A DNA stretch of 64,000 bases. It comes from Patescibacteria group bacterium (GTDB lineage Bacteria; Patescibacteriota; Patescibacteriia; JAHJFT01). Below are positions 4,733 to 47,620 of the stretch, piece by piece. Every line of letters starts with the position of its first letter. Positions within the stretch are counted from its first letter, which is position 1. The notes below the pieces were generated by a model, which was given only the letters and a program-made list of their open reading frames with translations, did not search any database and was not told the DNA's origin. A program made the position numbers and the translations under genes. The stretch lies in assembly GCA_028710985.1 (NCBI GenBank), contig JAQTTB010000001.1, positions 19,280 to 83,279 of the forward strand, read 5' to 3'.

Positions 4733-4897
4733 ATTAAAAAAATATTCCTTTTTACCGCTGTCTCGGACTCGCTAAGGGGCCCCGTGGGGCAGGATCTTAA
4801 CTTACTCGCCCAAAACATGAGAGATTAATTAATTTAATTGTGGCTGTATTATATATATAAGCCCCGACCCTGTCAAGAGAGGGGTTGATATGTTAAA

Positions 4898-4975
4898 ATA
4901 GCTTGTAGGAAGTAGCTTGTAGCTTGTAGGACGCGACCTATTAAGATCCTACAAGCTACAAGCTACAAGCTAATA
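4898..4975. promoter_or_regulatory. Perfect inverted repeat forming a hairpin with a 19-bp-or-longer stem and a 15-nt loop, built from tandem AGCTTGT units, in a divergent intergenic region
   Basis: TAGCTTGTAGCTTGTAGGA at 4913-4931 pairs with TCCTACAAGCTACAAGCTA at 4947-4965. Further AGCTTGT / ACAAGCT units extend both arms. It abuts the ATG at 4975. Confidence 0.6.
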
Positions 4976-14993: not shown

Positions 14994-15002
14994 AAAAATA
15001 AC

Positions 15003-15036
15003 AAAAAATAGGTGTTTGCAGACACCTATTTTTTTA
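15003..15036. terminator. Bidirectional rho-independent terminator between convergent genes
   Basis: AAAAAATAGGTGTTTGCAGACACCTATTTTTTT has a 9-bp stem flanked by an A-run and a T-run. Confidence 0.75.
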
Positions 15037-15038
15037 CA

Positions 15039-23521: not shown

Positions 23522-25224
23522 ATTTTTAAAATTTTATAATCCTTATTACTGAAAACTTCCTCCAGTCCGTCTGCTGAATTCGAACTATAGTATAAATCCA
23601 TATATTTACCGCGCGGCAAAAGAATATATGAACAATCAAGCCTAACGGCAAAATTTACAATCTCTTTGAAGTCAGCCGCTTTTTCAACGATCTGATTATA
23701 TGCCTGTCTCTCCTCATACCATCTTTTAGCATTTTCGAAATTTGAAGTAACCCAAATAGAACCTTCTTTTTCAGTCAGATTAGTATTCTGCCTACTTAAT
23801 ACTTTGAATTTAAATTCATTTTGAAAGTCATCAAAAACAAAAATCCGGTTCTCACTAACGGAAAGCGCGCTTTTTGCCCAAATTGCCGCCTCATAAAGAT
23901 TGTTAAAGTTATTTGTATTCGATTCATCCACCACGGGGGCTAAATTATATTTTATTCTTATGCCTTCGGGCACCAATGCCCTTACTACCGGCCTAATAAC
24001 GGGCGCAAAAAAATAAATTGGCGTAACCACAACGATCAAAGATAATGCTACGGACAGCCATTTTTTATTCATCCTAGAATAAAGCAAATAAACAACTAGA
24101 GCGAACTGCATGATTAGAATGAAGCCCAACACCCTCATTAGCCGAATGTGCTCCACGAAAAATGGCAGCTCTCCATTTTTCATTAAAAAATAATTAGTAA
24201 CATCAACACCGATAACGAATAAAATGGTTATAATCATCAGTATGGTGCTGATTTTATGAACTGCCCGTTTCTCCGAATCTAATGAGGACCCGTAGATACG
24301 CATGATAAAAAACGATAAAAAAAACATTAAGATCATTGTAAAACTATCCCACATCGAACGTTTAATTCTGGCCAAGTCGACTGTCGCGAGAAAACCGTTC
24401 GCTTCAAACCTATATTGAACAATTTCAGAATGCAAAGCAACGTCCTCGGCGCTCAAATACTCCTCGGCCGGAATCATGCCGGTACTCGAATTAGTAAAAT
24501 GGTTTATCAAAAATGGCAAAGCTACTATAAAATAAATGACAGCAAAAATAATTATCGGCTTGAAATATGCCCTATGTTGCTTCGCATAAAAAATCAAAGC
24601 GCCCAAGATAAATAAACCGATAACTACGCTTCCGACGGGCGGATATAAGTAAAGCAAAATGCCGGCAGATATTGCCAATAAAATATTATATTTATTATTT
24701 TTTAAACCATAAATTATCCAATAGTAGCTAAGCAAAAAATAAAAAGGAAAGGCGAATGTATTGCCGCGCAAATTCCCAAGATCGAGCAAGCCAATTCTTG
24801 TAAAGAATACATTACGCGGTACTACGCACAAAAGTCCCACCAATGCCGCTAGGGACCAGCTTTTAAATATTTTTTTAGCAATTAATCCGCTCGCAAGATA
24901 GGTTATGGCAATTATAAGAATAGTAAATAGATGATAGCTCACTAAATCATACTTCAAGCCTGGATTGAAATAATAAAAAACCGGGAACGCTGCATATAGC
25001 TCCTCCTGATTATAAGCCGACGGCACGTCTGTCCATACTCCATCATTTTTTTGTATCATCAATAATTGATAACACCAAAGATCGCTGCTCAAATCGCCAA
25101 GATTACTACCATAATTAGTAAAAATATAATAAAAAATTATGACTACAAGTATGATAGTAAAAAAAAGTTTAGAATTGAAAAATTTTAACATTTTATTTAC
25201 GTTGTTTAAATAGAAGATCAGCAA
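23518..25224 (-). CDS. Large polytopic membrane protein; candidate O-antigen polymerase or GT-C-like enzyme
   Basis: A 568-aa ORF with more than 10 TM helices, then a soluble domain of about 150 aa. It is embedded among GT genes. I recognised no motif. Confidence 0.35.
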   Translation of the reverse strand: MLIFYLNNVNKMLKFFNSKLFFTIILVVIIFYYIFTNYGSNLGDLSSDLWCYQLLMIQKNDGVWTDVPSAYNQEELYAAFPVFYYFNPGLKYDLVSYHLFTILIIAITYLASGLIAKKIFKSWSLAALVGLLCVVPRNVFFTRIGLLDLGNLRGNTFAFPFYFLLSYYWIIYGLKNNKYNILLAISAGILLYLYPPVGSVVIGLFILGALIFYAKQHRAYFKPIIIFAVIYFIVALPFLINHFTNSSTGMIPAEEYLSAEDVALHSEIVQYRFEANGFLATVDLARIKRSMWDSFTMILMFFLSFFIMRIYGSSLDSEKRAVHKISTILMIITILFVIGVDVTNYFLMKNGELPFFVEHIRLMRVLGFILIMQFALVVYLLYSRMNKKWLSVALSLIVVVTPIYFFAPVIRPVVRALVPEGIRIKYNLAPVVDESNTNNFNNLYEAAIWAKSALSVSENRIFVFDDFQNEFKFKVLSRQNTNLTEKEGSIWVTSNFENAKRWYEERQAYNQIVEKAADFKEIVNFAVRLDCSYILLPRGKYMDLYYSSNSADGLEEVFSNKDYKILKI

Positions 25225-26054: not shown

Positions 26055-26981
26055 TTATTTATTTATTGCAATTATTCGAATATTGGAGGTGGCATATAGA
26101 GCCCCGAGAACAAAATCAATTAACGAAAAAAATAGTGTTAAAAATAAATTATTTATATTAAACCAACCGGCAATTTTTTTATGTTTGTCATCGAAATAAT
26201 GATGCAATGACTGAATCCAGAAAGTCGGGCTCAGCAAAAATTGAATTCCAATAACAGCGAAATTGCACTCATTCAACAAACCCACGAGGATATTTTTATT
26301 AAAAATATGCCAATGTCGTGGTATATGATAGCCTCCCCAATATCTCTTTCTAAAAATTCTCGCATCTAGAGAATCGTAATTTGGGGTTTCGATAATAAGC
26401 AAGCCGTTCCGTTTAAGCATCCTCCTGGCCTTTAAAATAATTTCGCGTGGATTATGAAGGTGCTCAATCGTTTGATTCAAAATGATTGCGTCAAAATAAT
26501 CATAATAACCCCCCATTTCTTCGAATCTTCCTGCAATGAATTCGATACCATGCCGATTTAATATATCACCAGTTGCAGAATTAATATCATTGCCATACAA
26601 TTTCCATCCGCTACCCCTGTGTTTCTTAATAATTCTGAGCAATTCTCCGTTGCCGCACCCACCGTCGAGAATTCTAGCATCATCCGAAAGATTAGCAAGC
26701 AAAGGACGAACCTTCAATCTTTGCACAAAATTCCGCGCAATCTTTGTAATAAAATTTAACCCCTCTTCAAATTTATAAGGAAAATAATTTGCTGGATAAA
26801 TCTTTTCAATTTCTCCGACGGTCGGATTGGGATTTAGGTATATCACACCGCACTTTAAACACTTTACGTAACAATATTCCTGATCGGATGTGTGATATTC
26901 AAAATCTTTTCCATGCGCCCAAACTTTGTACAGATCCGATCCGCATACACCACGACAAGCTTTTTGGGTCCTTATTTCCAT
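26055..26981 (-). CDS. Class I SAM-dependent methyltransferase with an N-terminal Cys-rich region
   Basis: ARILDGGCGNGELLRIIKKH is motif I. The N-terminus reads CRGVCGSD...CYVKCLKCG. Confidence 0.7.
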   Translation of the reverse strand: MEIRTQKACRGVCGSDLYKVWAHGKDFEYHTSDQEYCYVKCLKCGVIYLNPNPTVGEIEKIYPANYFPYKFEEGLNFITKIARNFVQRLKVRPLLANLSDDARILDGGCGNGELLRIIKKHRGSGWKLYGNDINSATGDILNRHGIEFIAGRFEEMGGYYDYFDAIILNQTIEHLHNPREIILKARRMLKRNGLLIIETPNYDSLDARIFRKRYWGGYHIPRHWHIFNKNILVGLLNECNFAVIGIQFLLSPTFWIQSLHHYFDDKHKKIAGWFNINNLFLTLFFSLIDFVLGALYATSNIRIIAINK

Positions 26982-27080: not shown

Positions 27081-28913
27081 TTATAATTCAAGCTTATTTT
27101 TACGGTAAAATTTTACAAAACTTATCAAACCCCACAACTCTCTACTATAATCTTTCTTATTCCCCATATGATCCGCAACCATTTTTTCAATCGCTTTACC
27201 ATTTAAAAATGCTATATCCGCAATATTCTTTTTATCTAAAATATCCATCATGAAATCCTTTAATTCATTCTTCAGCCAATCCGCGATCGGAAAGCTGAAT
27301 CCCTGCTTCTTTGTATAAATTAACTTTTTCGGTAAATACCTCTCTAGAAGCTTTTTTAAAATATACTTAGTGGTGATACCGCGAATTTTTAATCCCGGCG
27401 CCAAGGAATTGCTAAACTTTATTACTTCGTTGTTCAAGAAAGGAACACGTACCTCTAAAGAATTAGCCATGCTCATTCGATCGACCTTGACTAAATACTC
27501 CCCTTCCAGCACGGTTTTCTGATCAACATACAATAGCTGATTCAGCACATCTTCCCCCTCCACGACTTTAAAATACTCTGCAAAATCGTCGCAAACATTG
27601 TTAAAAAAATCTTCAACTAGGATATCCGCATTATGCATTATTCTATAATAAAAATGAGATTTTGTAAATGGATACTTGGCCGCATAAACAAACCTTTTTA
27701 ACTTATAATCAAAGCTCATTTTTCTGTAAGAAGACGGCAAATAATGAACCATTTTTTCCACCAATGTTTTTATGGGCAGGTGGCGATAAATTTGACTAAT
27801 TCTAGGCAAATAATAGATAGGGTAACCCCCAAATAACTCATCCCCGCCGTCGCCGGATAAGCAGACTGTCGCTCGCTCTTTTGCAAAATGGCACAAGAAA
27901 TATGTGGGAATCGCGCTGCTGTCACCAAAAGGCTCCTGAAAATAATCAAAAATATCCGGAATGGCATTTATGACCTCCCTCTTCTCTAGATAAATCGAAT
28001 TATGATTAGTGCCAATAATCTTTGCGATTTTACTGGCGTTCTTTGATTCGTCATAAGAATTCTCACCGAAATTAAATCCAACCGTAAATGTATTCAGGTT
28101 TCCTACATGCTCCTTGGCGATGGCGGTGATTAAACTAGAATCAACGCCGGAGGATAAGAATACCCCCAATGGCACATCGCTGACCAAGGATTGTTCGATT
28201 GATTCATCGAGCACGCACCGTAGGGCATCGATTGAATTATTAAGATCTTGATAATTATTTGTAAATGTCGGTTTCCAATATTCCTGAATATTAATTTGCT
28301 CTTTCTGCAAATCAAAAATCGCAAAACTAGCCGGTGGCAATTTAAAAACGTTTTCAATTATGGACTCATTGCCATAAATGTAATTTTGATAAAAAAATCT
28401 TCTGACTGCCCTTAAATTAATTTTTTTGTTGATCTGGAGCGATGCCAGCTCAGAGGCGAATTGAAATATCCCGTCATGAAAACTATAGTAAAGTGGTTTT
28501 ATTCCCATTCGATCTCTGGCCAAAATTAATTGATTTTTAACTTCATCGTAAATTGCCAGGGCGAACATGCCATCGAATAATTTGAAGGCTTCTGGTCCAT
28601 ATTTAATATAGGCCCTTAATACAACCTCCGTATCGGAATCGGAGAAATAGTCACCGGGCAAATCTTTTTTTAATTTTTTAAAATTATATACTTCACCATT
28701 GTAGACAATCGCATAGGCGCCAATTCTCATGGGTTGGCTCGCCCTTTGAGAAAGATCAATGATAGAAAGACGCCGGTGTCCTAATTTGACCCTCTGATCT
28801 TCGGATATAAAAAAACCTGCCGCATCCGGACCGCGGTGGAGCATTGAATCTCTTCTCTTCAAAAAAATTTCCTTATCAAATTTCGATGAATATTCTCCGA
28901 TAATTCCGCACAT
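27081..28913 (-). CDS. asnB: Asparagine synthase (glutamine-hydrolysing)-family amidotransferase
   Basis: The N-terminal nucleophile is MCGIIG, and the synthetase domain carries the PP-loop SGGVDSS (LSSGVDSSLITAIA). Length is 610 aa. Confidence 0.85.
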   Translation of the reverse strand: MCGIIGEYSSKFDKEIFLKRRDSMLHRGPDAAGFFISEDQRVKLGHRRLSIIDLSQRASQPMRIGAYAIVYNGEVYNFKKLKKDLPGDYFSDSDTEVVLRAYIKYGPEAFKLFDGMFALAIYDEVKNQLILARDRMGIKPLYYSFHDGIFQFASELASLQINKKINLRAVRRFFYQNYIYGNESIIENVFKLPPASFAIFDLQKEQINIQEYWKPTFTNNYQDLNNSIDALRCVLDESIEQSLVSDVPLGVFLSSGVDSSLITAIAKEHVGNLNTFTVGFNFGENSYDESKNASKIAKIIGTNHNSIYLEKREVINAIPDIFDYFQEPFGDSSAIPTYFLCHFAKERATVCLSGDGGDELFGGYPIYYLPRISQIYRHLPIKTLVEKMVHYLPSSYRKMSFDYKLKRFVYAAKYPFTKSHFYYRIMHNADILVEDFFNNVCDDFAEYFKVVEGEDVLNQLLYVDQKTVLEGEYLVKVDRMSMANSLEVRVPFLNNEVIKFSNSLAPGLKIRGITTKYILKKLLERYLPKKLIYTKKQGFSFPIADWLKNELKDFMMDILDKKNIADIAFLNGKAIEKMVADHMGNKKDYSRELWGLISFVKFYRKNKLEL

Positions 28914-30800: not shown

Positions 30801-31754
30801 CTAAAAATTAATTTTAGATTTTAAAACGTACGGTTTCTCCCCTCGCGATTCATAATAAGTGCGCATGATCAATTCCGCTAAAACACCCATGGCGATAAGC
30901 TGTATGCCGACAATGATAAATAAAGCAGTCAATATCGGCAATGGAGTCTCCACGAAACTTCTTAATCCAAAAATTTTAAGCACAATCGCAGATAGGCCGG
31001 CCATAATCCCGACAAAAAGCGCGATAAACCCCATCCCTCCAAAAAAATGCATCGGCTTATTCAAATACTTTTCAAAAAATTTTATAACTACCAAATCCAG
31101 TAAAACTCTAAAAATTCTAGATAAACCATAATTGCTCCGACCGGCTTTTCTTGGACGATAGTTTACCTCCACTTCTGTCAGATTAGCGCCTTGGCGTACG
31201 GCATAAGCCGGTATAAACCGATGCATTTCTCCATAGAGGGAAAACCCGTGTAATATTTTTTTTCTATATGCCTTCAATGTGCATCCATAGTCATGCAACT
31301 TAACATTAGTAATTCTTGAAATCAACCAGTTCGCCATGAGGGAGGGCAGTCTACGACTTAATTTATTCTTTTGCCAACGCCCGCGACGCCACCCGGAAAC
31401 AACGTCATACCCGTTATTAATACGCTCCAAGAGCCTTGGAATATCGGCCGGGTCATTTTCTAAATCACTATCCATGGTCACGATTATATCACTGCTCGCA
31501 TATTCAATCCCGGCTTGAAGCGCGGCGGTTTGTCCGCGATTTACCGCAAAACTTAAAACCTTAATTTTATTATTATCGCCCGCTAGTGATTTTAACACGG
31601 CCAAAGAATTGTCGCTCGACCCATCGTCAACCAGAATTATTTCATAATCATAACTATTCCTCTCCATTACGGACACGATCTCTCGGACCAATTCCAATAA
31701 ATTTTTTTCCTCATTATAGACTGGTATAACAATCGATAAATGCATATTTCCCAT
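30801..31754 (-). CDS. Glycosyltransferase family 2, GtrB/DPM1-like with C-terminal TM helices
   Basis: LSIVIPVYNEEKNLLELVREI...IILVDDGSSDNS...VTMDSDLEND is typical of GT2. It has 2 C-terminal TM helices. Confidence 0.82.
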   Translation of the reverse strand: MGNMHLSIVIPVYNEEKNLLELVREIVSVMERNSYDYEIILVDDGSSDNSLAVLKSLAGDNNKIKVLSFAVNRGQTAALQAGIEYASSDIIVTMDSDLENDPADIPRLLERINNGYDVVSGWRRGRWQKNKLSRRLPSLMANWLISRITNVKLHDYGCTLKAYRKKILHGFSLYGEMHRFIPAYAVRQGANLTEVEVNYRPRKAGRSNYGLSRIFRVLLDLVVIKFFEKYLNKPMHFFGGMGFIALFVGIMAGLSAIVLKIFGLRSFVETPLPILTALFIIVGIQLIAMGVLAELIMRTYYESRGEKPYVLKSKINF

Positions 31755-33418
31755 TAAAATTTAATTAAAACAAAATATTCATTTTGCGATATGGGAAGAT
31801 CCCCTTGATCCCCTTCTTTCACCACTCCGGCTAACGCTGAGTTCGAACGCAATAGCGCATAATTTGCCCCATATTTACGACCAAAATCTATCAACTTAAC
31901 GATATCGTCACCGTGTAGGGCATTGTTTTGTTCTTCAAATACTCTGCGCCATTCTACCAATTGATTCTTGCCCGACATTAAATATGCGGATCCCTCTTCA
32001 AAGGAAGTAACTATATTAACCCTGCAGAAATAACGCAAATTAAAATCATTACTAATCACGGTATCCCCGTCGCCGACACCGCCGTTTTTAAGTTGCTGGC
32101 AAACTATATTATATATCTTTTCCTGGTCTTCAAACACCTTATTTTGAAATACCCTGGGTATATATTCCTCCTGATAATTCTCATAACCTAATAAAAATTG
32201 AAACCATTCGAAGCCAAAGGAGGAGCTCAAAAAGCCCAAAATGAGCAGGGCGGATAAGAAAATTACTCGAACTTTTTTTTGTAAAAAATATCTATTGCGT
32301 CTAAATAATTCTTCCAGTGAAACAGCCACTAATAAAAATATACCAAAGTAAACAAATTTAAAAAATCGACTAGTTTGCTGAAAAATAAACGGACCATCCA
32401 AATGGATCATCGCTATTTGTAGTATTGGAAAAAATACACTAAAAAATATTGAGAGCAGTATAAATAAAATTGACCACTTTGCGATAAGATAATCCAAGGA
32501 TTCTTTTATGATTAACCTCTTTTTCAAGAGGTACAAAACATATGCAACGAATGGCGCAAAGAAAACAAGAATAATTATCATATGCCGTATCCACATAAGG
32601 CTCTCCGGCGGATAATCCCATGGCGTCCTAAAAATTATCGCTTCCAAGAAGTCTAAGCTTGAGTATTCAACATTAGATAAAAATTTGGAATTTATTGCAT
32701 CTAAACGAAAAATTATTTCATACAACAGCAAGGATGAACCAAGAATAAATGCAGCTGACGCTGATGCGGTCTGTTTCAAAACACCAAAAAAATTATTGCG
32801 CCAAAATAAAAGAAATAAAGATATTACGAGAGCTAGAAAAGTAAAAAATAATATGCTTACCGGATGAATATAAGAGACTATACCGAGCAATAAGAACAAC
32901 GGCCAAATTTTCTTATTGTCGTAAATAAATTTAATAATTAATGCACCGATTATCCATAAGAATGGCATCGCCGTCGAACGTCCCAAAACTTCATAATTCG
33001 TGAGAACTCCGAATATTTCGTTCCCGACCGAAAAGCGCGGGGCAAGGGCTACTATAGCTACAACGATCGCGATTGAACGCCGTATGCCCAATATTCTAAG
33101 CGCAATATACGCCGAATAACCAGTAAAAAAAACCATAGAAAATAATAGTATATTGCGGCTGGTAAATGGATCAAAGAAATAACTCAACGCATTAATAATA
33201 TATGGATAAACGTAGTATCGATACGTCATCGTGGACAATAATTCATTTCCTGGATAAGAACTATCCATTAAAGCCCGGTTAGACGCCATAATGGCAATCT
33301 CATCGCCATTGAGTCTAAACGGCAGGGAAAAATTATAAACAACCGACAGAGCGGCAATAAACAAAAAAATCAATATTACACATAAATTGACGATTCCAAC
33401 ATTTTTACGCTCTGACAT
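31754..33418 (-). CDS. Large polytopic membrane protein; candidate GT-C-like enzyme
   Basis: A 554-aa ORF with more than 10 TM helices and a soluble C-terminal domain of about 150 aa. I recognised no motif. Confidence 0.35.
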   Translation of the reverse strand: MSERKNVGIVNLCVILIFLFIAALSVVYNFSLPFRLNGDEIAIMASNRALMDSSYPGNELLSTMTYRYYVYPYIINALSYFFDPFTSRNILLFSMVFFTGYSAYIALRILGIRRSIAIVVAIVALAPRFSVGNEIFGVLTNYEVLGRSTAMPFLWIIGALIIKFIYDNKKIWPLFLLLGIVSYIHPVSILFFTFLALVISLFLLFWRNNFFGVLKQTASASAAFILGSSLLLYEIIFRLDAINSKFLSNVEYSSLDFLEAIIFRTPWDYPPESLMWIRHMIIILVFFAPFVAYVLYLLKKRLIIKESLDYLIAKWSILFILLSIFFSVFFPILQIAMIHLDGPFIFQQTSRFFKFVYFGIFLLVAVSLEELFRRNRYFLQKKVRVIFLSALLILGFLSSSFGFEWFQFLLGYENYQEEYIPRVFQNKVFEDQEKIYNIVCQQLKNGGVGDGDTVISNDFNLRYFCRVNIVTSFEEGSAYLMSGKNQLVEWRRVFEEQNNALHGDDIVKLIDFGRKYGANYALLRSNSALAGVVKEGDQGDLPISQNEYFVLIKF

Positions 33419-34166: not shown

Positions 34167-35237
34167 TTAAATATTCTTATCTGGATAAAAATTATCCATC
34201 AAACGCTCAATTAAAAAATCCAAACTATGCTCGCGGATTATAATTTCTCTCAATCCCTTGCCTAACGCCACCCGCCTGTCTACATCCATAGTCAATAAAT
34301 TTATCAATTTATTCTTAAAATCATTCACGTCATCCTCCTCAAAAACCATCGGCTCAGGCAAAACATCCTTTAGCGCCCTATTTGATACCAGCACCGGCAT
34401 TTCACAGGCCATGGCTTCAAAAATTGTCTTATCCATGCTCCCGCTCTGTGTAAAATTAACATAAAGCGCGTGTTGGTTATAAATGTTCGATGTCTCACGA
34501 TATGGCACGCCAGGATAAAAAGAAAGCATTCCTGCGCCCTCCAGCTCCTTGCCCGCTCCCCTGACTCTTTGATAATATTCCGCATCGGAATCGGTCGGAT
34601 CGCCATAGATACTCGCCGTAAAGCCAATTCCTTGGCCATGCAGATCAGACAAAGCGTTAACAAACATTTCGACTTTCTTAACTGGCGATATTCTCCCCAG
34701 AAACAATACGGATTTTTCATATTTCGCCGATGGATCGAAACCTTTAAATATATCTGTGTCGATCCCAACGGGCATAATCCTTGCTTTTTTATACCGCGAG
34801 CAAAACGAATTTGGTGAAGTGTAGAATACGTTATTGGAAAATAAGACGCCAAACCTAGTTATGATATTACCAATCTTGTGATTGTGCCATAGAAAAATTT
34901 TTTTATTAAAAATTCTCCACAATATACCGGCCATAACAATATATTCCGGATTCATATGGACAAAAATAACGTCGTAATCCCTAATTAGAAAAATAATATT
35001 TTTATAAAATTCGATAATATAGCCAACCCGACTCTTCCTTTTTTCCTTTTCCAGGGATATAACTCGCACATTGTTTGGCAAATTATATTTTCCTGACTCT
35101 AGACAAACTACGTTAACAGTATCAAACGATGGGCTAATCTTCATAATCCAGTTATGAAAAAATCCAAGCACTTTATCGTCCCTGTCAACCTTCTGAGTAA
35201 TAATTAGCAGATTTATTTTTTTATCGCCTTGTCCCAT
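34167..35237 (-). CDS. Glycosyltransferase, GT4/GT1-like Glycos_transf_1 domain
   Basis: The C-terminal block LFLGRISPVKKVEMF...TQSGSMDKTIFEAMACEMPVLVSN is typical of this domain. Confidence 0.7.
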   Translation of the reverse strand: MGQGDKKINLLIITQKVDRDDKVLGFFHNWIMKISPSFDTVNVVCLESGKYNLPNNVRVISLEKEKRKSRVGYIIEFYKNIIFLIRDYDVIFVHMNPEYIVMAGILWRIFNKKIFLWHNHKIGNIITRFGVLFSNNVFYTSPNSFCSRYKKARIMPVGIDTDIFKGFDPSAKYEKSVLFLGRISPVKKVEMFVNALSDLHGQGIGFTASIYGDPTDSDAEYYQRVRGAGKELEGAGMLSFYPGVPYRETSNIYNQHALYVNFTQSGSMDKTIFEAMACEMPVLVSNRALKDVLPEPMVFEEDDVNDFKNKLINLLTMDVDRRVALGKGLREIIIREHSLDFLIERLMDNFYPDKNI

Positions 35238-36337
35238 GTTTCGTTATAAAGTTTTAATGTCGCCTCCTTGCCCGGAAGTCGCTCTAACGCGTTCTTGGCA
35301 TTTTGACTAAACTTCATTTTTAATTCAGGGTTATTCTTTACTTTGACCAATGCGTCAGAAATCGCACTTATATTATTTACCGGGACCACGATACCATTCT
35401 CATAGTTTTTTACCACCTCTCCGGCGCAACCGACGTCGGTCATGATAACTGCGCAGCTGCAAGCCAGGGATTCAATAGCCACCCTGCTCCATCCTTCGTA
35501 TTCAGAGGTCAATAAAACACAATCCGCTCCCTTAAAAAAACTCACAACGTCCTGGGTCCAGGGAATGAAAATCACCGATTCACCCAAGCCCAATTCGCCT
35601 ACCAATCTTTTTAATTCTTTTTCCTGACTCCCCTCGCCAACAATGAGCAAGCCGCTCTTAGGACTTTTTTTTAAGAACATTAAAAATGCTTTTAAGGCAA
35701 CGTCTATTCTTTTTACCCTCTCCAATCGCCCCATAACCAGAGCGATAAAATCAAATTGTGAATATTTTTCCTTTAGATTAAAATCCGGCTCCTTTAATTC
35801 CAGACTTTTCCAAGGTGTGCAAATCGGCAGAACCGTTATCTTTTCTTGATTAATCCCTCTCTTGATTAAGTCCCGCTTGATTCTCTGACTAACCGCTCTG
35901 ATAGAATCGGCCTTTTTTATAATTCCCAAGCCAAGATACCATCGTAGATTGTTCAAAAAATTTTCTCCGCGCCAATGAGGATTACTAAAAAAATCGCCAT
36001 GGAGTTGAATATTCAAACCTAAACCGAATTTTCTTTTAGCGAAATATCCGATTAACCCGATGGCAAACGGGTCTTGAACCGAAACGACATTAATATTGCT
36101 GCGCTTAATAATGCTGGCTGCTTCCCTCCACAATTTTAACCAGCCAAAAAATTTATTATTAACTCCCACGGATCGTACGAATACGTTGTCGGTTAATTGT
36201 ATATTCGTGCTACAACCAGCCGGCAGCAAAATATAAAATTTATTACCAATAAAATTGGCGTAACTCTTAAATCTCTCCTGTGTCTCGCTACCCGACTTTA
36301 AAATTCTTGCATCGGTGCCAATTATCAAAATGTTCAT
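35213..36337 (-). CDS. Glycosyltransferase family 4
   Basis: MNILIIGTDARILKSGSE and the C-terminal block LLIVGEGSQEKELK...LLTSEYEGWSRVAIESLACSCAVIMTDVG are typical of GT4. Confidence 0.75.
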   Translation of the reverse strand: MNILIIGTDARILKSGSETQERFKSYANFIGNKFYILLPAGCSTNIQLTDNVFVRSVGVNNKFFGWLKLWREAASIIKRSNINVVSVQDPFAIGLIGYFAKRKFGLGLNIQLHGDFFSNPHWRGENFLNNLRWYLGLGIIKKADSIRAVSQRIKRDLIKRGINQEKITVLPICTPWKSLELKEPDFNLKEKYSQFDFIALVMGRLERVKRIDVALKAFLMFLKKSPKSGLLIVGEGSQEKELKRLVGELGLGESVIFIPWTQDVVSFFKGADCVLLTSEYEGWSRVAIESLACSCAVIMTDVGCAGEVVKNYENGIVVPVNNISAISDALVKVKNNPELKMKFSQNAKNALERLPGKEATLKLYNETWDKAIKK

Positions 36338-37338
36338 TTCAGCTTCAAATTAATTGCTTTAATTATCGGCTTATTGGCAATGCTGCAGTTTTTGCATACC
36401 GGCAATTCCTGCTCAATGACTGCTCTTCTGATTTTTGCGTATTTATCGCTCTGCCAAATTTTATTAAAACTTCTTTCTTCAAAAACATTACCAACCACGA
36501 TGCTCCCCTCAAGATCGGTGCAGCATACACCCACATCACCGTTCCAAAGTATCACACTGCGCCAAATCCAGGGGCATGTCTTTGGCTTATCTATATTCAC
36601 GAGTCTACCCTCCTTCAGGCGATAGCGACTATTTTTTAAATCCGTTGGCAGAAACTCCAAGGCATTTGCTAGAAGCTTTTCCTGAAGTTCGGCCGTTGAC
36701 CCGATATTGAAAGAAGCGCTTTTAAACCACAGGGCGTCAACTCCGAGCTTGCGGCCCAAATCCTCAATCGCTCCCATCTCACGCTCATTGAACTTCATTA
36801 CCAAGAATTGAATAATAATCCTTGTCTTGCGGTTTTTGATGCCCGCTATCTGCCGCAGGGTTCCAACTATTTTATTAAAATCGCTATTGACACGATATTT
36901 CTGCTGCGTCTCGGCCGATGCTCCGTCCATGGCAAAAATCAAATTATCAATTCCATAGCCGACCGCCTCGCGATACCTTTCAACCGGCATGGTCCCATTA
37001 GTACTAACTGTCAATATATAACCGTGGTCTTTGAGATACTTCACCATCGCCGGAAACTCAGGATTGGCGAATGATTCGCCGGAAAAGTGCAAAGTAATTT
37101 TTTTGATGCTCCTGGGCAAATAACTTTCTATTTCCTCGAGCTGTTTCAAGGTTAAAAATCCTCTCGGCTTGGTTGACGTTCTCTGAATGCAAAACGGACA
37201 ACGCAAATTACAAAAACTCGAGGCCTCAATAATTATTTCTTTAAGCGGCCTAACCCTCCGAATCCAGGCATCTGGAAGCAATAACAGCGCTCTGTTGAAC
37301 AGAGTCGATTTACTTATTTTATCTTTCAGCCAATACAT
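36334..37338 (-). CDS. Radical SAM protein with a C-terminal SPASM/twitch-like Cys-rich domain
   Basis: CNLRCPFC is the CxxxCxxC radical-SAM cluster motif, and GESF is the SAM-binding GGE-like block. The C-terminus reads CPWIWRS...VGVCCTD...CKNC. Confidence 0.75.
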   Translation of the reverse strand: MYWLKDKISKSTLFNRALLLLPDAWIRRVRPLKEIIIEASSFCNLRCPFCIQRTSTKPRGFLTLKQLEEIESYLPRSIKKITLHFSGESFANPEFPAMVKYLKDHGYILTVSTNGTMPVERYREAVGYGIDNLIFAMDGASAETQQKYRVNSDFNKIVGTLRQIAGIKNRKTRIIIQFLVMKFNEREMGAIEDLGRKLGVDALWFKSASFNIGSTAELQEKLLANALEFLPTDLKNSRYRLKEGRLVNIDKPKTCPWIWRSVILWNGDVGVCCTDLEGSIVVGNVFEERSFNKIWQSDKYAKIRRAVIEQELPVCKNCSIANKPIIKAINLKLK

Positions 37339-38449
37339 ATCGTTTTATTATATTCAGGGTATCGGTCGCCGTATCTTTCCACGTGCGGTTTAATTCACCT
37401 TCTTTTATATCTGGACAAATTCTTTCATAATCAGATTCCTCGGCCAAACGAGCAATGTCTTTTTTTATTTCTTCGCGATCCATTGGATTAGTCAAAGTGG
37501 ATCTACCTTCAAAAATTTCTTCCATACCATTATCCCTGGTAATAATCAGGGGTTTCCCGAGTTTCATGCATTCCATGCCAAAATTCGGGCTGATTTCCGA
37601 AAACGAAGGCAGGATGCAGGCATAGGCCAATTTTATCCTTTCAATAACCCCTTGATGCGGAATGCCGTCAAATATTTTTATATATTCATCTGACCGGCTC
37701 TCTCGAACAATTCGTTTTAAATTATCTTTTTCGGGACCATCGCCATAAACACTCAAAAAAATCTTTTTTCCCTCGGTACGAAGCTCGACAAAAATTTTAA
37801 TTAAATCAGCCAGATTTTTTAATTTTATCAATCTGCCAGCAAATAAAAATATTTTATCCGGTTCAGCGTAACTCAATGACTGCCCTTTTAAAATCTGAGG
37901 GAATGGATTTAAAATAACGCTGCTCTTGGCCTCAATGAAAGGAAATACTTTCAAATAAATATTTCTCTGAAAATCGGTAGAAAAAATAATATGGGAACTG
38001 CGTGTTAAAACCAATTTAATAAGACGAAAGGCCATGCCACGCGTATATAAGTTTCTGCCGTAATATTCCGATAGCGTAACCCTTTGGCCGGATTCAGCCG
38101 CTTTCTCCCAAAGATAATCTCCACCGAGACGCAAAAATATTTTTTTTCTTAAATATACATTGGCAATTGCGGTTGGCAAACCAGCGCTCAATATATCAAA
38201 TGTATAAATGAGATCCGCCTTTCGTCCGTGTCGCAAGACATTAATAAAAAAGGTGAAATATCTAATATAAACACACGGCTTTCTTGAAACACCGTGGATT
38301 CTCATCCCCTCCACCGCATTTGGCTGGCCATATGTAATTATTTCGATCTCATGGCCTAATTTTTTTAGCTCCGCAGATAAATTTTCTACATACGTTGCTG
38401 GCCCGCCAATATCCGGTGGAAATATGCCCGTTGTGATCAATATCTTCAT
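37319..38449 (-). CDS. Glycosyltransferase family 4
   Basis: MKILITTGIFPPDIGGPATYVENLSAELKKLGHEI is typical of GT4. The C-terminus reads FLSVYGDGPEKDNLK...ILPSFSEISPNFGMECMKLGKPLI. Confidence 0.78.
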   Translation of the reverse strand: MKILITTGIFPPDIGGPATYVENLSAELKKLGHEIEIITYGQPNAVEGMRIHGVSRKPCVYIRYFTFFINVLRHGRKADLIYTFDILSAGLPTAIANVYLRKKIFLRLGGDYLWEKAAESGQRVTLSEYYGRNLYTRGMAFRLIKLVLTRSSHIIFSTDFQRNIYLKVFPFIEAKSSVILNPFPQILKGQSLSYAEPDKIFLFAGRLIKLKNLADLIKIFVELRTEGKKIFLSVYGDGPEKDNLKRIVRESRSDEYIKIFDGIPHQGVIERIKLAYACILPSFSEISPNFGMECMKLGKPLIITRDNGMEEIFEGRSTLTNPMDREEIKKDIARLAEESDYERICPDIKEGELNRTWKDTATDTLNIIKRYVLAER

Positions 38450-39558
38450 TTTAAATATTTATCATATTCCCCGCTCACTTGCCGAACAACCTTATCCCAG
38501 TTGAATCTTCCCAACCCCTGAAAAGCATTATTTCTTAATCGTTCGCGCAGTTCCTGGTCGCTAAGAAGACGCTTTATGGCCGCAGCGATGGCTTCCGAAT
38601 CTCGCGGCGCAATTAAAAGCCCGGTTTGATTATCGGAAATAACATCCGGAATTCCGCCGACTCGCGTTCCTATAACTGGCGCCCCGCACGCCTGGGCTTC
38701 AATAAAGACAATACCTAAACCCTCAGCGAGCGATGGACAAATAAATATTTGAGCCTTGCCCATCTCCCTAAGTGTCTCTTCGTGCGGCAGTTTACCCAAG
38801 AGCGTAACCCTGCTCCCCAAATTCAATTCCTTTATCATCCGCTCAATTTCCTGTCTTTTATTTCCCTCCCCAACCATAACCAAATGAGCATTGGGAAATT
38901 CTTGAAAAACCGAGGGCAACGATTTTATTAAATAATCCAATCCTTTTTCCCAGGAGAGTCGCGCCACGCAGACGATTCTTCCCGGGATCGGTTCGGCCTG
39001 ACTTTGTTTTGCCAGCTCAAGGTCAACCCCATTCGGAATAATTACAACCTTGCCCTGATCGGTCCTCAATTTCTTCGCGCGTTCAGCAAGCGACGAGCTA
39101 ATCGCAGTTACAAGATCGGGCGTAGAGTGAATTCTTTTCCAAAGAAATGCGGGAATTTTCTTGCTCGGATCGTCCAGATCGCCGCTTTGTAAAGTCAGGA
39201 TTGTTGTAATTTTTTTATTAAAAATTGAAAAAAGCCACAACGCGATGCCGGCATAGCTCTCCATAACTGCATGAACCAAGTCCGGCTTTAATTTTTTGGC
39301 TAAAATTACAGCAAAAATCGGATACAGCCATTTATCAAAAGAACTGCCGATTCCAACGCGGTAGTACTTAAACTTGTCCCGCTGTTCAAATTTTGGCAGT
39401 TTCTTATCTAATCGAGCGCTGATGATTGTAAAATCATATTCTCCAGCCAGCCGTTCAACCACTTCTTTCACAAACATCTCCGCACCGCTGATAAATGGGT
39501 CGTAAAAGCAAGAAAAAATTACAATTTTTTTTTGTCCATTCATTCTATAAAAAATCAC
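38446..39558 (-). CDS. Glycosyltransferase family 4
   Basis: CFYDPFISGAEMFVKEVVERL and the C-terminal block LVMVGEGNKRQEIE...ICPSLAEGLGIVFIEAQACGAPVIGTRVGGIPD are typical of GT4. Confidence 0.8.
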   Translation of the reverse strand: MIFYRMNGQKKIVIFSCFYDPFISGAEMFVKEVVERLAGEYDFTIISARLDKKLPKFEQRDKFKYYRVGIGSSFDKWLYPIFAVILAKKLKPDLVHAVMESYAGIALWLFSIFNKKITTILTLQSGDLDDPSKKIPAFLWKRIHSTPDLVTAISSSLAERAKKLRTDQGKVVIIPNGVDLELAKQSQAEPIPGRIVCVARLSWEKGLDYLIKSLPSVFQEFPNAHLVMVGEGNKRQEIERMIKELNLGSRVTLLGKLPHEETLREMGKAQIFICPSLAEGLGIVFIEAQACGAPVIGTRVGGIPDVISDNQTGLLIAPRDSEAIAAAIKRLLSDQELRERLRNNAFQGLGRFNWDKVVRQVSGEYDKYLK

Positions 39559-41396: not shown

Positions 41397-41789
41397 ATGG
41401 GCGAAACTATCAAATCATTTGAGGACTTGCTCGTTTGGCAAGAGTCGCACAAGCTCATGATTGACGCTTATGGGTTCGCGGACCGCTATTTGCCGCCGGA
41501 AGAAAAATACAATCGCATTTCTCAAATAAAACGCTGTTCAAGCTCAATCCCTGCCAATATCGCCGAAGGTTATGGTCGATTTCATTTCTTGGAAAATATC
41601 CAATATTGCCGGCAAGCCCGAGGTTCACTTGATGAACTTAAAAACCACATCATCGCCGCCCGAGACCTAAAGCAGGCTCCTCCGGAAGAATGTGCCAAAT
41701 TTATCCAAAAATGCAATTATGTACGGGCTATCCTAAATAACTACATTAACAAAACTCATGATCTCTATATTGAAAATAAGCAAAAATAG
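41397..41789 (+). CDS. Four-helix-bundle protein of the 23S rRNA intervening-sequence protein family
   Basis: LLVWQESHKLMIDAY...IPANIAEGYGRFHFLENIQYCRQARGSLDELKNHIIAARDL matches the four-helix-bundle family often encoded in 23S rRNA intervening sequences. Here it stands alone among GT genes. Confidence 0.8.
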   Translation: MGETIKSFEDLLVWQESHKLMIDAYGFADRYLPPEEKYNRISQIKRCSSSIPANIAEGYGRFHFLENIQYCRQARGSLDELKNHIIAARDLKQAPPEECAKFIQKCNYVRAILNNYINKTHDLYIENKQK

Positions 41790-45661: not shown

Positions 45662-47620
45662 TTATTTTATTTCAACGGCATTAATATTGTCAAAAACGCC
45701 ACTGATAAAGCGCAGATTAATTTTATTATTATAAATTTCCGCGATGGCGATTCTCACCTCTCCGACAATATAGTCATAAAATGCTTTCAAGTCAAACTGA
45801 TTCGCCTGCGTCGCCCAGTTTGCGCTGCGGAGGAACGCGCCATTCCGATCGAATGATTTTATATATATATTTCCGTCTGTTTTATAAGTAACCAGTATCT
45901 CTTCTTCTTCGCCCGTATCCAAATTTTGCGTCGCAACGAATATTGGCCCCGTGATTTTCTCTGCCGCTTGAAAATTTGAAACCAAGACGCCACTCTTCCT
46001 AAATATCTTAATATGCAAAACACCGGCATCAATAAATCCCACGATTATTTCATCCGTGTCATCGGCATCAATATCTCCAGCCGTGACCGTAACGCCGCCG
46101 CGAAAACCAGAAGTATACGCCATAAAATTACCCTGAATTTCCCCTCTTTCATTAAACACTAGTATATGCGGACCGCCGCCCGGACCCGGCGCGGTGATAA
46201 TTTCATCGTTCACCGTCCGGCTGTCCACATTTCCGACGGCGATATTCACGCCACCGCGGAAAAGCGAATTATACGCAAAAAATTGTCCGTACAATTTCCC
46301 TGTCTCGCTAAAAATACGCACCTGCGGACCGCCGCCCGGACCCGCGCCGACCACAATTTCTTTTTGACCGTCATTATTTACGTCGCCGCTCTGAGCCGTG
46401 AACCCCTTTTTGAAACTATCCGGAAACACCGCGAAGCTATCTTTGACTTCCCCGCCGCTCCCAAGCTCACGGACAACCGGCGTAAAACCAAGCGGCGCAC
46501 CGATTACAAGCGATGAACCGCTCTTTGCCGCTTCAAGCGCCAACTCAAGCGCAGCGCGCGCATCCACGCGCGTTCCCAAGCCTCCGGCAAAATCCGGATT
46601 GATCCCGTCAATTATCACGCCGCTTTTTACCAAAATTTCATTGATTTCACGAGCCGAGAGCCCGGGCGCGATTGATTTCACGAGTGCGGACACGCCGGAA
46701 ACAATCGGCGCCGCAAACGAAGTGCCCGACCAATCGTCATCATAGAATGTATCAAAATCCGCAATTGCCGAGTTATAAACACGCGCGCTCCATATATCCA
46801 TGCCCGGTGCCGAAACATCAACGCAGGCTTTGCCAAAATTTGAAAATTTCGCTTTTTGATCCAACGTGTCGGTTGCCGCGACTCCAAGTACGTATATTTC
46901 ATTCTCATATTGATCAATGCACACCGGAAATTCATCGTACATATCCAAGTTCGAGCCGCCCGATTCGTCCGGCGTATTGCCGGCCGCCGCCACTACTACT
47001 ACTCCCGCTTCCCAGGCGCGGCGCACCGCAGTTGACATATCCTCGCTAAAATTAAAACCTACAAAACTCAAATTAATCACATCCGCACCATTTCGAATGG
47101 CGTAATAAATCGCTTTTGCCACATTGTCCGAGAATCCGTTACCCGTGGCATCGAGCACCTGAAGCGGCATTATCTTGCTCTCCCAGGTGATTCCGGCCAT
47201 GCCGTTCCGATTATTCCCTTCGGCTGCGATGATGCTCGCCACCGCCGTGCCATGGCTAATTCCCTCTTCCGCATATCCGTTGGAAAAATTCGGCAATATA
47301 TTTCCGTTATTATCCGAGAAATTCCATCCATTCACATCATCAATATAATCATTCTTATCATCATCGATTCCGTTTGCCGGAATTTCATCTTCATTGATCC
47401 AAGCATTGCCATCCAATTCCGGATGCGAAATATCCACGGCCGTATCAATCACTGCGACAATCACCTTCGGACTGCCGGTCGAAATATCCCAGGCGCGTTC
47501 GGCATCAATCTGACGCAAATACCACTGACGCGAAAAATCCGTATCGTTTGGGGTGAAAGCCTGCGCGCCTTGAACCGCAACGAATACAAAAATTATTGTG
47601 CAGAATATAAACTTTTTCAC
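45662..47620 (-). CDS. S8-family (subtilisin-like) serine peptidase with C-terminal FG-GAP-like repeats
   Basis: A signal peptide is present. The catalytic-triad contexts are VAVIDTAVDISHPEL (Asp), HGTAVASIIAA (His) and GTSFAAPIVSGVSALV (Ser). The C-terminus repeats GDxNxDGxxEIVVGAGPGGGPQVRIF. Confidence 0.85.
   Translation of the reverse strand: MKKFIFCTIIFVFVAVQGAQAFTPNDTDFSRQWYLRQIDAERAWDISTGSPKVIVAVIDTAVDISHPELDGNAWINEDEIPANGIDDDKNDYIDDVNGWNFSDNNGNILPNFSNGYAEEGISHGTAVASIIAAEGNNRNGMAGITWESKIMPLQVLDATGNGFSDNVAKAIYYAIRNGADVINLSFVGFNFSEDMSTAVRRAWEAGVVVVAAAGNTPDESGGSNLDMYDEFPVCIDQYENEIYVLGVAATDTLDQKAKFSNFGKACVDVSAPGMDIWSARVYNSAIADFDTFYDDDWSGTSFAAPIVSGVSALVKSIAPGLSAREINEILVKSGVIIDGINPDFAGGLGTRVDARAALELALEAAKSGSSLVIGAPLGFTPVVRELGSGGEVKDSFAVFPDSFKKGFTAQSGDVNNDGQKEIVVGAGPGGGPQVRIFSETGKLYGQFFAYNSLFRGGVNIAVGNVDSRTVNDEIITAPGPGGGPHILVFNERGEIQGNFMAYTSGFRGGVTVTAGDIDADDTDEIIVGFIDAGVLHIKIFRKSGVLVSNFQAAEKITGPIFVATQNLDTGEEEEILVTYKTDGNIYIKSFDRNGAFLRSANWATQANQFDLKAFYDYIVGEVRIAIAEIYNNKINLRFISGVFDNINAVEIK

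Follow-up and report, generated by a model that had tools for sequence, protein, structure and literature searches.

Between two genes for GT4 glycosyltransferases in the genome of an uncultured member of the Patescibacteria, a gene is located whose product is probably a BtrN-like radical SAM enzyme. It has an auxiliary domain of the twitch type and would, together with the flanking GT4 enzymes, tailor one of the sugars in a glycan of the cell surface. The stretch of DNA analysed, referred to as the window, comprises 64,000 nucleotides (GenBank assembly GCA_028710985.1, contig JAQTTB010000001.1, positions 19,280 to 83,279). An unusual sugar modification had been considered for this gene in the original prediction, which was made from the DNA alone, and it is the best-supported reading, because the synteny with GT4 genes is conserved, fusions to glycosyltransferases exist, and BtrN and BlsE are the nearest solved relatives. 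From this we infer a sugar as the substrate class of the enzyme.

The gene and the parts of it that are discussed below are located on the minus strand:

36334-37338, minus strand: radical SAM enzyme with twitch-type auxiliary cluster domain, ATG-started open reading frame of 334 amino acids
37189-37212, minus strand: CNLRCPFC, the CxxxCxxC motif, residues 43-50, read directly from the sequence
36385-36576, minus strand: twitch-like auxiliary-cluster domain, residues 255-318, C255-x11-G267-x4-C272-C273 ... C315-x2-C318, invariant in 18 homologues
36520-36522, minus strand: codon of C273, the fifth (spare) conserved cysteine, Cys in 150 of 154 family representatives

The CxxxCxxC motif provides the three cysteines for the [4Fe-4S] cluster which binds and cleaves SAM. 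Its earlier assignment to the radical SAM enzymes was confirmed by the Pfam model PF04055 (Radical_SAM), which matched residues 39-176 with 60.6 bits (cutoff 29.5). C43, C47 and C50 were invariant in the 18 homologues and also in all 145 of the 145 aligned representatives. In total, the protein contains exactly eight cysteines, three in this motif and five in the C-terminal part, and all eight are unchanged across the 18 homologues. The AF2 model (pLDDT 82.5) consists of six alternating β-strands and helices in the core, followed by a hairpin, predicted at residues 261-270, and further helices, while N-terminal helices were predicted at residues 2-29; the top Foldseek matches were all radical SAM structures. 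By its motif, its Pfam score and the predicted barrel core, the protein is a member of the radical SAM superfamily. The ATG start is supported by the N-terminus M-x-YWLKDK, which is conserved among the homologues. These reach an E value of 1e-117 and 52% identity, a similarity far beyond chance, and an identical protein has already been deposited as 'radical SAM/SPASM domain-containing protein [Patescibacteria group bacterium]' on a 744-kb contig.

No curated family claims the protein. In NCBIfam, 52 families matched it, all with scores far below cutoff, so that no equivalog applies. A prokaryotic viperin (pVip) was also considered; here, NF038283 gave 31.8 bits (cutoff 180), and the PADLOC pVip model gave 40 bits over the core only (residues 41-187), which is a generic viperin-core match, and the defence reading was therefore rejected. 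C-methylation, which had been listed among the conceivable sugar modifications, is unlikely, since Pfam identified only the Radical_SAM and SPASM domains and no N-terminal cobalamin-binding domain (PF02310).

For the C-terminal part, a cysteine-rich SPASM domain had been proposed, and the Pfam model PF13186 (SPASM) indeed matched residues 255-318 with 51.6 bits (cutoff 21.5). The two-cluster SPASM motif consists of CX9-15GX4C, a gap, CX2CX5CX3C, a second gap and a last C, with seven cysteines for two auxiliary clusters. In the window protein, the CX2C part is present but the CX5CX3C extension is absent, and five C-terminal cysteines were counted instead of seven or eight, so that a second auxiliary cluster is not expected. 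The proposal therefore holds for the domain family but has to be changed to the twitch type with one cluster, twitch being defined as a truncated SPASM domain with a single auxiliary cluster instead of two (PMC9012708). Among 154 family representatives, the pattern C...GxxxxCC...CxxC is 97-100% conserved, and 99 of the 154 contain exactly five C-terminal cysteines. C255, C272, C315 and C318 align with the four cysteines C169, C187, C232 and C235 of BtrN (by our own count in chain 4m7s_A). This sequence pattern fits a BtrN-type twitch domain with one cluster and one spare cysteine, rather than the two-cluster SPASM domain of the peptide maturases.

The spare cysteine is C273. Its position is occupied by Phe in BtrN and aligns with Asp277 of anSMEcpe, a residue which we take to have a catalytic role in anSME. 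C273 is a candidate for a hydrogen-atom donor or an active-site thiol. In NeoN, Cys249 has been described as a hydrogen-atom donor (PMC10991966), and the title of a study cited in the same paper states for HygY that a single cysteine separates the twitch epimerase from a dehydrogenase.

Comparisons to solved structures also pointed to enzymes acting on sugars. The best match of the family profile was BtrN (E value 5e-27, 98 bits), which aligned over both domains and with all four auxiliary cysteines, followed by BlsE (1e-18). With the profile of the twitch domain alone, BtrN was found with 6e-15, compared to 0.023 for SuiB and 0.3 for anSME. Among the top Foldseek matches, the sugar-acting enzymes were represented by BlsE as the top match, by BtrN, and by DesII within the top 10, and the peptide maturases SuiB, anSME and CteB ranked about level with them, all with TM-scores of 0.5-0.6. 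The single-sequence match between the window protein and BtrN is weak (1e-4), so that the gene is not an orthologue of btrN; its context consists of GT4 genes in a Wzx/Wzy glycan locus and not of the 2-deoxystreptamine aminoglycoside genes expected for a DOIA dehydrogenase. The 25 NCBIfam families listed for the window protein did not include the BlsE model TIGR04466, which gave 54.7 bits (cutoff 400) on the homologue P0010.

The gene is embedded in a locus for glycan assembly, in which the following features were identified by Pfam scans:

37319-38449, minus strand: GT4_up1, the GT4 glycosyltransferase directly upstream (Glycos_transf_1 and Glyco_transf_4), 20-nt overlap with the start of the radical SAM gene
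38446-39558, minus strand: GT4_up2, the second upstream GT4, 4-nt overlap
35213-36337, minus strand: the downstream GT4, 4-nt overlap with the stop of the radical SAM gene
34167-35237, minus strand: GT1_356, a GT1-type glycosyltransferase, last gene of the conserved block
13536-45660, no strand assigned: the surrounding glycan-assembly locus, with the initiating phosphoglycosyl transferase (Bac_transf) and Wzx at one end and a Wzy_C/TPR protein at the other

The coordinates bear out the 20-nt and 4-nt overlaps with GT4 genes on both sides that had been noted before. Between 17.3 and 41.3 kb, the minus-strand genes are tightly packed, with overlaps or gaps of at most 17 nt and a single gap of 99 nt as exception. 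The locus further codes for about 10 glycosyltransferases, six SAM methyltransferases, AsnB, GtrA, a DPM-like GT2, SDR epimerases and a DUF218 protein.

The most constant partner of the radical SAM gene is GT4_up1, in which an E-x7-E motif (EISPNFGME) is visible. Orthologues with 34-46% identity are located directly upstream in the related loci L001, L086, L087/88, L089, L092 and L093, and in L006 it was found as a 110-aa fragment about 1.4 kb upstream. Orthologues of GT4_up2 (41-45%) occupy the same position in L001 and L086, and those of GT1_356 (32-38% identical) were identified in L001, L086, L087/88 and L092. Wherever downstream sequence is available, the gene after the radical SAM gene is a GT4 gene, of one of two sequence types. 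Altogether, the radical SAM gene lies directly beside GT4 genes in nine of nine further loci with 43-79% identical homologues, usually with overlaps of 4-16 nt in which the stop and start codons overlap. In the locus of an archaeal homologue (38%), genes for Wzx, glycosyltransferases, AsnB and a methyltransferase were found. The related locus L002 contains cobalamin-dependent radical SAM enzymes as separate genes. A DegT aminotransferase, a nitroreductase, a B12-dependent radical SAM enzyme and a second radical SAM paralogue, all known from related loci, are absent from the window and are therefore not obligatory partners.

In relatives with about 33-35% identity, the radical SAM enzyme is fused to other domains, as GT1/4-rSAM (P0043), GT2-rSAM (P0116) and rSAM-methyltransferase (P0068). 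The glycosyltransferase domains of the fusion proteins gave no specific match to any one of the flanking glycosyltransferases. The next clade out is found in the Bacteroidota (30-35% identity, at least 590 matches among GTDB species-representative genomes), as a stand-alone gene with non-conserved neighbours unrelated to glycans. A link to glycans thus does not extend to all members of the family, which limits the extrapolation beyond the close clade. The original prediction had made its reading depend on C-terminal cysteines with SPASM or twitch spacing and on a grouping apart from housekeeping radical SAM enzymes without a glycan context. The outcome was mixed, since the cysteines fit the twitch spacing and the close clade is embedded in glycan loci, but the Bacteroidota clade lacks such a context. 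A metagenome scan for more close relatives revealed one useful locus, L089. The genome scan was dominated by the Bacteroidota clade, and its sole functional lead was a cassette in Ignavibacteria with genes for a 32% identical radical SAM homologue, LPG_synthase_TM (UPF0104) and a GT2/Glyco_transf_21-like protein. It was found in five Ignavibacteria-type genome loci and also in L004 and L005, two loci from metagenome assemblies.

For the proposed sugar tailoring, a mechanism in three steps can be considered. The [4Fe-4S] cluster at the CxxxCxxC motif would reductively cleave SAM, and the resulting 5'-deoxyadenosyl radical would take a hydrogen atom from an unactivated C-H of the sugar. This sugar might be the nucleotide-sugar donor of the neighbouring GT4, or part of a lipid-linked oligosaccharide formed by the upstream GT4s. 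In the favoured course, C273 would then give a hydrogen atom back on the opposite face, resulting in a redox-neutral epimerisation, as for HygY and NeoN. In the other route, an electron would pass to the single auxiliary [4Fe-4S] cluster and a keto-sugar would be formed, as for BtrN. The preference for epimerisation by C273 over oxidation to a keto-sugar, like any assignment of the reaction outcome by analogy, is speculative. If the enzyme does tailor a sugar, an epimerase would be the most plausible type, though tentatively so; other radical sugar chemistry, such as dehydration, decarboxylation or C-C bond formation, would come next as a real possibility, and a dehydrogenase would be the more doubtful assignment. 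A more far-reaching version, in which the enzyme acts between two steps of glycosyl transfer on a sugar already attached to the lipid-linked oligosaccharide, and would be the first recognisable member of such a family, is unlikely on present grounds; the edit could then be a radical epimerisation at an unactivated carbon by the conserved cysteine of the CC pair.

Taken as an explanation of the gene as a whole, a BtrN-like two-electron dehydrogenase, which would convert a sugar C-OH to the ketone and pass the electron to the auxiliary cluster, is rather improbable. In both domains, BtrN is the nearest relative with a solved structure, and for twitch and SPASM oxidases the auxiliary clusters have been proposed as electron acceptors (PMC9012708). 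Other enzymes of the locus would then transaminate the ketone, methylate it or reduce it to the epimer, and C273 would be a structural residue or a redundant ligand. In L001, L086 and L087, a DegT aminotransferase is encoded two to three genes upstream, which echoes the BtrN/BtrS pair; however, it is missing from the window, no follow-up enzyme for a keto-sugar is conserved across the loci, and the extra cysteine, 97% conserved in the window family, is absent from BtrN. Modification of a lipid or glycolipid rather than of the glycan chain, for example of the polyprenyl carrier or of a membrane glycolipid head-group, appears quite unlikely. It would agree with the UPF0104 cassette of the 32% homologues, with the archaeal lipid enzyme GDGT-MAS among the profile matches (5e-16) and with the predicted helices at residues 2-29, which could be membrane-peripheral. 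The cassette recalls HpnI, HpnJ and HpnL of hopanoid synthesis, but HpnJ belongs to a different, B12-binding class, the match to GDGT-MAS covers the radical SAM core only, and in the close clade the neighbouring genes on either side invariably code for soluble GT4s, in a locus of the Wzx/Wzy type.

The maturation of a peptide, which had been the second proposal of the original prediction, was not supported. Here, a peptide or protein would be cross-linked or oxidised and then glycosylated by the neighbouring glycosyltransferases, as in the GG-Bacteroidales system (TIGR04148/04149/04157), or processed as by anSME. The Pfam SPASM model matches, the fold and profile matches include SuiB, anSME, CteB and SkfB, and the flanking GT4s match TIGR04157 weakly. 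These latter matches reached 46-64 bits against a cutoff of 400, however, and TIGR04148 was not among the 25 NCBIfam families listed for the radical SAM protein. The five C-terminal cysteines do not provide for the second cluster of a full SPASM domain, the part before the core is just 33 residues long, Pfam found no PqqD or RRE domain, and no sulfatase is encoded in the window. Since the gaps between genes are at most 17 nt from 29.3 to 41.3 kb, no peptide gene fits there, in line with the earlier remark that no precursor peptide was obvious nearby. No conserved small open reading frame was found in the window or in related loci, the only small ones being located in a convergent gap 5.7 kb from the radical SAM gene. 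Such a maturase is therefore highly improbable. Slightly less credit still is given to a maturase for a metallo-cofactor or metalloenzyme that is present in the glycan locus by accident. The best NCBIfam match was TIGR04317, a family of putative tungsten-enzyme maturases, over the full length with 114 bits, followed by TIGR04311 with 78 bits, but the cutoffs, 380 and 400 respectively, are missed by a wide margin in both cases. The window contains no gene for a tungsten enzyme or an aldehyde oxidoreductase, and the adjacency to GT4 genes is kept in the nine further loci, in addition to the fusions with glycosyltransferases.

The carbohydrate-acting radical SAM relatives identified here (BtrN, BlsE and DesII) and the two cases taken from the literature (NeoN and HygY) all belong to antibiotic pathways. 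If sugar tailoring is the correct reading, a family located between glycosyltransferases for envelope glycans would bring radical sugar chemistry into the primary assembly of surface glycans, and would point to unusual sugars on Patescibacteria. According to PMC8080830, a symbiotic life with other organisms is assumed for these bacteria, so that their surface is presumably central to their lifestyle. If editing on the chain occurs, surface sugars out of reach of the usual 4-keto chemistry of nucleotide sugars would become available to anaerobic CPR bacteria and, by extension, to DPANN archaea and Brachyspira. The signature C...GxxxxCC...CxxC and the GT4-rSAM-GT4 triad make such loci easy to search for, and the five-gene block at 34167-39558 is a small unit for reconstitution.

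Among the known systems, BtrN shares most features with the window protein. Both consist of a radical SAM core and a C-terminal twitch domain, in which four aligned cysteines bind, or in the window protein are predicted to bind, a single auxiliary [4Fe-4S] cluster and a G-x4-C hairpin is aligned. BtrN, the 2-deoxy-scyllo-inosamine dehydrogenase of the butirosin pathway (PDB 4M7T/4M7S), acts on a carbohydrate-type substrate (PMC9012708). It is much smaller, with 269 residues in chain 4m7s_A compared to 334 in the window protein, and its gene is part of an aminoglycoside antibiotic cluster, whereas the window gene is located between the glycosyltransferase genes of a Wzx/Wzy glycan locus. HygY from the hygromycin B pathway and NeoN from the neomycin pathway are sugar epimerases, which abstract a hydrogen atom and return one from a cysteine thiol (PMC10991966). 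By its published description, HygY is a twitch enzyme in which one cysteine decides between epimerase and dehydrogenase, and the window family has a twitch domain and one spare conserved cysteine; the substrates of HygY and NeoN, however, are antibiotic pseudo-oligosaccharides. BlsE, a cytosylglucuronate decarboxylase, and DesII, a TDP-4-amino-4,6-dideoxyglucose deaminase, convert nucleoside- or nucleotide-linked sugars. Their matches cover mainly the radical SAM core, and both are from antibiotic pathways.

The SPASM maturases anSME, SuiB, CteB, PqqE and MftC resemble the window protein in the match to the Pfam SPASM model, in the hairpin half C-x(n)-G-x4-C and in their similar folds. In contrast, they bind two auxiliary clusters by seven or eight cysteines including CX2CX5CX3C, and in many cases an RRE/PqqD domain and a peptide substrate are present or required; none of these features was identified for the window protein.

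In searches of the literature, no characterised radical SAM enzyme was found for O-antigen, polysaccharide or CPR glycan loci. That such enzymes are not standard in polysaccharide loci, as had been stated before, is nevertheless too strong, since similar twitch-type genes are present in glycan loci of CPR bacteria, of archaea and of a Brachyspira plasmid. The latter, plasmid pBHWA1 of Brachyspira hyodysenteriae, contains an rfb-like locus coding for six uncharacterised radical SAM proteins of 330-406 amino acids, among glycosyltransferase, rfbC, rfbF and epimerase genes. These proteins share the layout of the window protein, with CxxxCxxC near residues 36-53 and C...GxxxxC...CxxC from about residues 240-277; GxxxxCC is present in three of the six. 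They are only 19-27% identical to it, and their genes form a tandem radical SAM array instead of the GT4-rSAM-GT4 sandwich. The rfb-like gene block of pBHWA1 has been associated with colonisation and virulence (PMC4267127), and a function defined for the window family would therefore read directly onto this pathogen.

The radical SAM (rSAM) gene of the window codes for a protein of 334 amino acids and overlaps with a glycosyltransferase gene on either side. The coordinates given in the original prediction were all correct:

36334-37338, minus strand: rSAM reading frame with ATG start, 334 aa
37189-37212, minus strand: CNLRCPFC (residues 43-50), SAM-cluster motif read in the sequence
Residues 39-176: Radical_SAM domain (PF04055), Pfam 60.6 bits against a cutoff of 29.5
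Residues 255-318: SPASM domain (PF13186), Pfam 51.6 bits against a cutoff of 21.5
37319-38449, minus strand: upstream GT4-type glycosyltransferase (Pfam), 20-nt overlap with the rSAM frame
35213-36337, minus strand: downstream GT4-type glycosyltransferase (Pfam), 4-nt overlap with the rSAM frame

The start codon is backed by an N-terminus conserved among homologues. An identical protein is already public as a "radical SAM/SPASM domain-containing protein" on a 744-kb contig of a Patescibacteria MAG.

The protein contains exactly eight cysteines, none of which varies across 18 aligned homologues. Three form the SAM-cluster motif, and the other five are arranged as C255-x11-G267-x4-C272-C273 ... 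C315-x2-C318. Over a set of 154 sequences, made up of the query, three additional homologues and 150 representatives of clusters formed at 50% identity, conservation was 100% for C255 and C272, 97% for C273 and 99% for C315 and C318; exactly five cysteines were present in the C-terminal domain of 99 of them. Five cysteines, with CxxC standing alone where CX2CX5CX3C would be needed, are too few to ligate two [4Fe-4S] clusters. When the family profile was compared to solved structures, the butirosin dehydrogenase BtrN was by far the best match (E 5e-27, 98 bits), with both domains aligned; C169, C187, C232 and C235 of BtrN (our own count in chain 4m7s_A) lie opposite the four auxiliary cysteines. 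With a profile of the C-terminal domain only, BtrN was matched at 6e-15, versus 0.023 for SuiB and 0.3 for anSME. From these sequence comparisons it was concluded that the protein belongs to the BtrN type of twitch enzymes and has one predicted auxiliary cluster and one spare conserved cysteine, C273. The original label "SPASM" is borne out by the Pfam model, but the five C-terminal cysteines and the likeness to BtrN make "twitch" the appropriate term.

In the domain alignment, the position of C273 is occupied by Phe in BtrN and by Asp277 in anSMEcpe, a proposed catalytic residue of that enzyme; if Asp277 is catalytic, the C273 position would face the active site. The AF2 model (pLDDT 82.5) consists of a six-stranded radical SAM core, followed by a beta-hairpin with G267-x4-C272 and then helices. 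Foldseek gave similar ranks to the sugar enzymes BlsE, BtrN and DesII and to peptide maturases (SuiB, anSME, CteB), all with TM values of 0.5-0.6, and the modelled fold alone cannot separate the two readings.

Close homologues of the protein are few. Gene neighbourhoods were read for homologues of 43-79% identity at L001, L086, L087/L088, L089, L092, L093, L094 and the Saccharibacteria contig L006, and all readable loci repeat the GT4/rSAM arrangement of the window. Wherever upstream sequence exists, the rSAM gene is directly preceded by a GT4 gene orthologous to the upstream one of the window (34-46% identity), usually with an overlap of 4-16 nt; the exception is L006, where only a 110-aa fragment of this GT4 was identified, about 1.4 kb upstream. 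A GT4 gene directly follows wherever downstream sequence exists, and several loci also retain the second upstream GT4 and a GT1-type gene farther downstream. Among the family set of about 200 clusters (E < 1e-30), fusions were identified of GT1/GT4 to rSAM (P0043, 692 aa), of GT2 to rSAM (P0116, 632 aa) and of rSAM to a methyltransferase (P0068). The conserved adjacency, the stop/start overlaps and the fusions to GT domains tie the rSAM enzyme to glycosyl transfer. Four other members (P0133, P0143, P0147 and P0162, 444-547 aa) are extended at the N-terminus by about 150-250 aa that have no Pfam match.

A 38% homologue was identified at L002, from a probable archaeon with a TFIIB gene nearby, in a locus holding Wzx, GTs, AsnB, methyltransferases, a nitroreductase, three B12-binding radical SAM genes (180-1664, 4792-6267 and 14022-15476) and a second rSAM/SPASM paralogue. 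This paralogue, about 25% identical to the window protein, is present in both archaeal and CPR glycan loci, at L002:12968-14020 and L001:15523-16560. The additional genes suggest that these anaerobes modify their glycans extensively by radical chemistry.

The next clade out, 30-35% identical, is abundant among Bacteroidota, with at least 590 matches in GTDB species-representative genomes. Here, the gene stands alone with varying neighbours, for example SusC/D-like, OmpA-like and other unrelated genes in Chryseotalea. Among the distant relatives a conserved cassette was identified only in an Ignavibacteria subgroup (L004, L005, L015, L038, L055, L056 and L084; 32% homologue, match at about 10001-11017 in L004), consisting of rSAM, LPG_synthase_TM (UPF0104) and a GT2/Glyco_transf_21-like gene, divergent from bshC. 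The cassette recalls the hopanoid genes HpnI/HpnJ/HpnL. Since the Bacteroidota genes lack conserved neighbours, the glycan link holds for the close clade and the fusions and is not proven family-wide.

In the window, the rSAM gene is part of a very large glycan-assembly region, for which Pfam identified an initiating Bac_transf, Wzx, a Wzy_C/TPR protein, about ten GT4/GT2 genes, six SAM methyltransferases, AsnB, GtrA, a DPM-like GT2, DUF218 and SDR epimerases; two large putative membrane proteins lacking a Pfam match also belong to it, and further GTs lie farther out. The G+C content of 16000-41300, which includes the rSAM gene, is 0.378, versus 0.494 and 0.493 in the left and right flanks, and this segment may be a variable glycan island, either acquired horizontally or evolving fast, within the larger GT-rich region. 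Further features of the region are:

27081-28913, minus strand: AsnB homologue, 32% identical to its archaeal counterpart at L002:8060-9916; it may amidate a uronic acid
31754-33418, minus strand: 554-aa frame without Pfam match, after the DPM-like GT2, hydrophobic and multi-pass in appearance
23518-25224, minus strand: 568-aa frame without Pfam match
41397-41789, plus strand: 130-aa "23S rRNA-intervening sequence protein" (PF05635, 98.7 bits), alone between divergent glycan operons and adjoining a plus-strand GT4
47778-51557, minus strand: 1259-aa frame without Pfam match
45662-47620, minus strand: subtilase with FG-GAP repeat, adjoining the 1259-aa frame; the pair lies just past the Wzy_C/TPR gene

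The 554-aa and 568-aa proteins could be GT-C-type glycosyltransferases using lipid-phosphate sugars. A second CxxxCxxC string, CYVKCLKC at 26873 (residue ~36 of the methyltransferase 26055-26981, minus strand), probably arose by chance or marks a zinc site and not a radical SAM enzyme; Pfam gives methyltransferase domains only.

Sugar modification, as originally proposed, is the best-supported reading of the rSAM gene, based on its genomic context, with GT4 synteny, GT fusions and the relation to BtrN. The SAM-cluster motif, the BtrN-type cluster site, the spare cysteine and the GT4 partnership suggest that the enzyme would abstract a hydrogen from a sugar carbon, either in a nucleotide-sugar that serves a neighbouring GT or in a lipid-linked oligosaccharide built by the upstream GTs. 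As to the outcome, we speculatively favour redox-neutral epimerisation, in which C273 would supply the hydrogen. The main rival is a BtrN-like oxidation of the sugar, which gains some support from DegT genes in three related loci; however, BtrN has no counterpart to C273, and no keto-sugar-consuming enzyme is conserved with the rSAM gene. Both points argue for epimerisation, as do two precedents in PMC10991966: loss of one cysteine is reported to turn the twitch epimerase HygY into a dehydrogenase, and Cys249 of NeoN serves as hydrogen donor.

Two further options of the original prediction were set aside. C-methylation is unlikely, since Pfam shows no B12-binding domain in the protein. Peptide maturation was rejected on the cysteine count, the absence of a PqqD/RRE protein from the window and the gene packing: from 17.3 to 41.3 kb, minus-strand genes overlap or are separated by at most 17 nt, except for one 99-nt gap, leaving no space for a peptide gene, in agreement with the earlier remark that no precursor-peptide frame was obvious. 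Metalloenzyme maturation was likewise rejected; no curated NCBIfam model was passed, the best, TIGR04317 (putative tungsten-enzyme maturase), scoring 114 bits where 380 are required, and no tungsten oxidoreductase is present in the window. Membership testing was also negative for an antiviral, viperin-like role. Genes for a sulfatase, DegT or a nitroreductase are absent from the window, and the rSAM gene is the only radical SAM gene in it.

Literature searches on polysaccharide, O-antigen and CPR loci yielded no described function for such radical SAM enzymes. The view that they are not standard in polysaccharide loci meets a precedent in Brachyspira hyodysenteriae plasmid pBHWA1 (NC_012226.1, 5141-24082), where genes for an SDR epimerase, a HAD hydrolase, an ATP-grasp ligase and a GT, together with rfbF and rfbC, are accompanied by seven uncharacterised radical SAM genes, five of which stand in tandem. 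Six of the seven proteins share the twitch layout of the window protein (330-406 aa), three with GxxxxCC, and a correlation of the gene block with colonisation and virulence is described in PMC4267127. The rSAM finding is real, testable and, from its gene context, suggestive. What is rated as new is a predicted twitch sugar-type enzyme with a five-cysteine signature in a GT4-rSAM-GT4 triad. The carbohydrate-acting relatives or literature examples BtrN, BlsE, DesII, NeoN and HygY all belong to antibiotic pathways, so that the new aspect is the setting in a cell-surface glycan assembly line.
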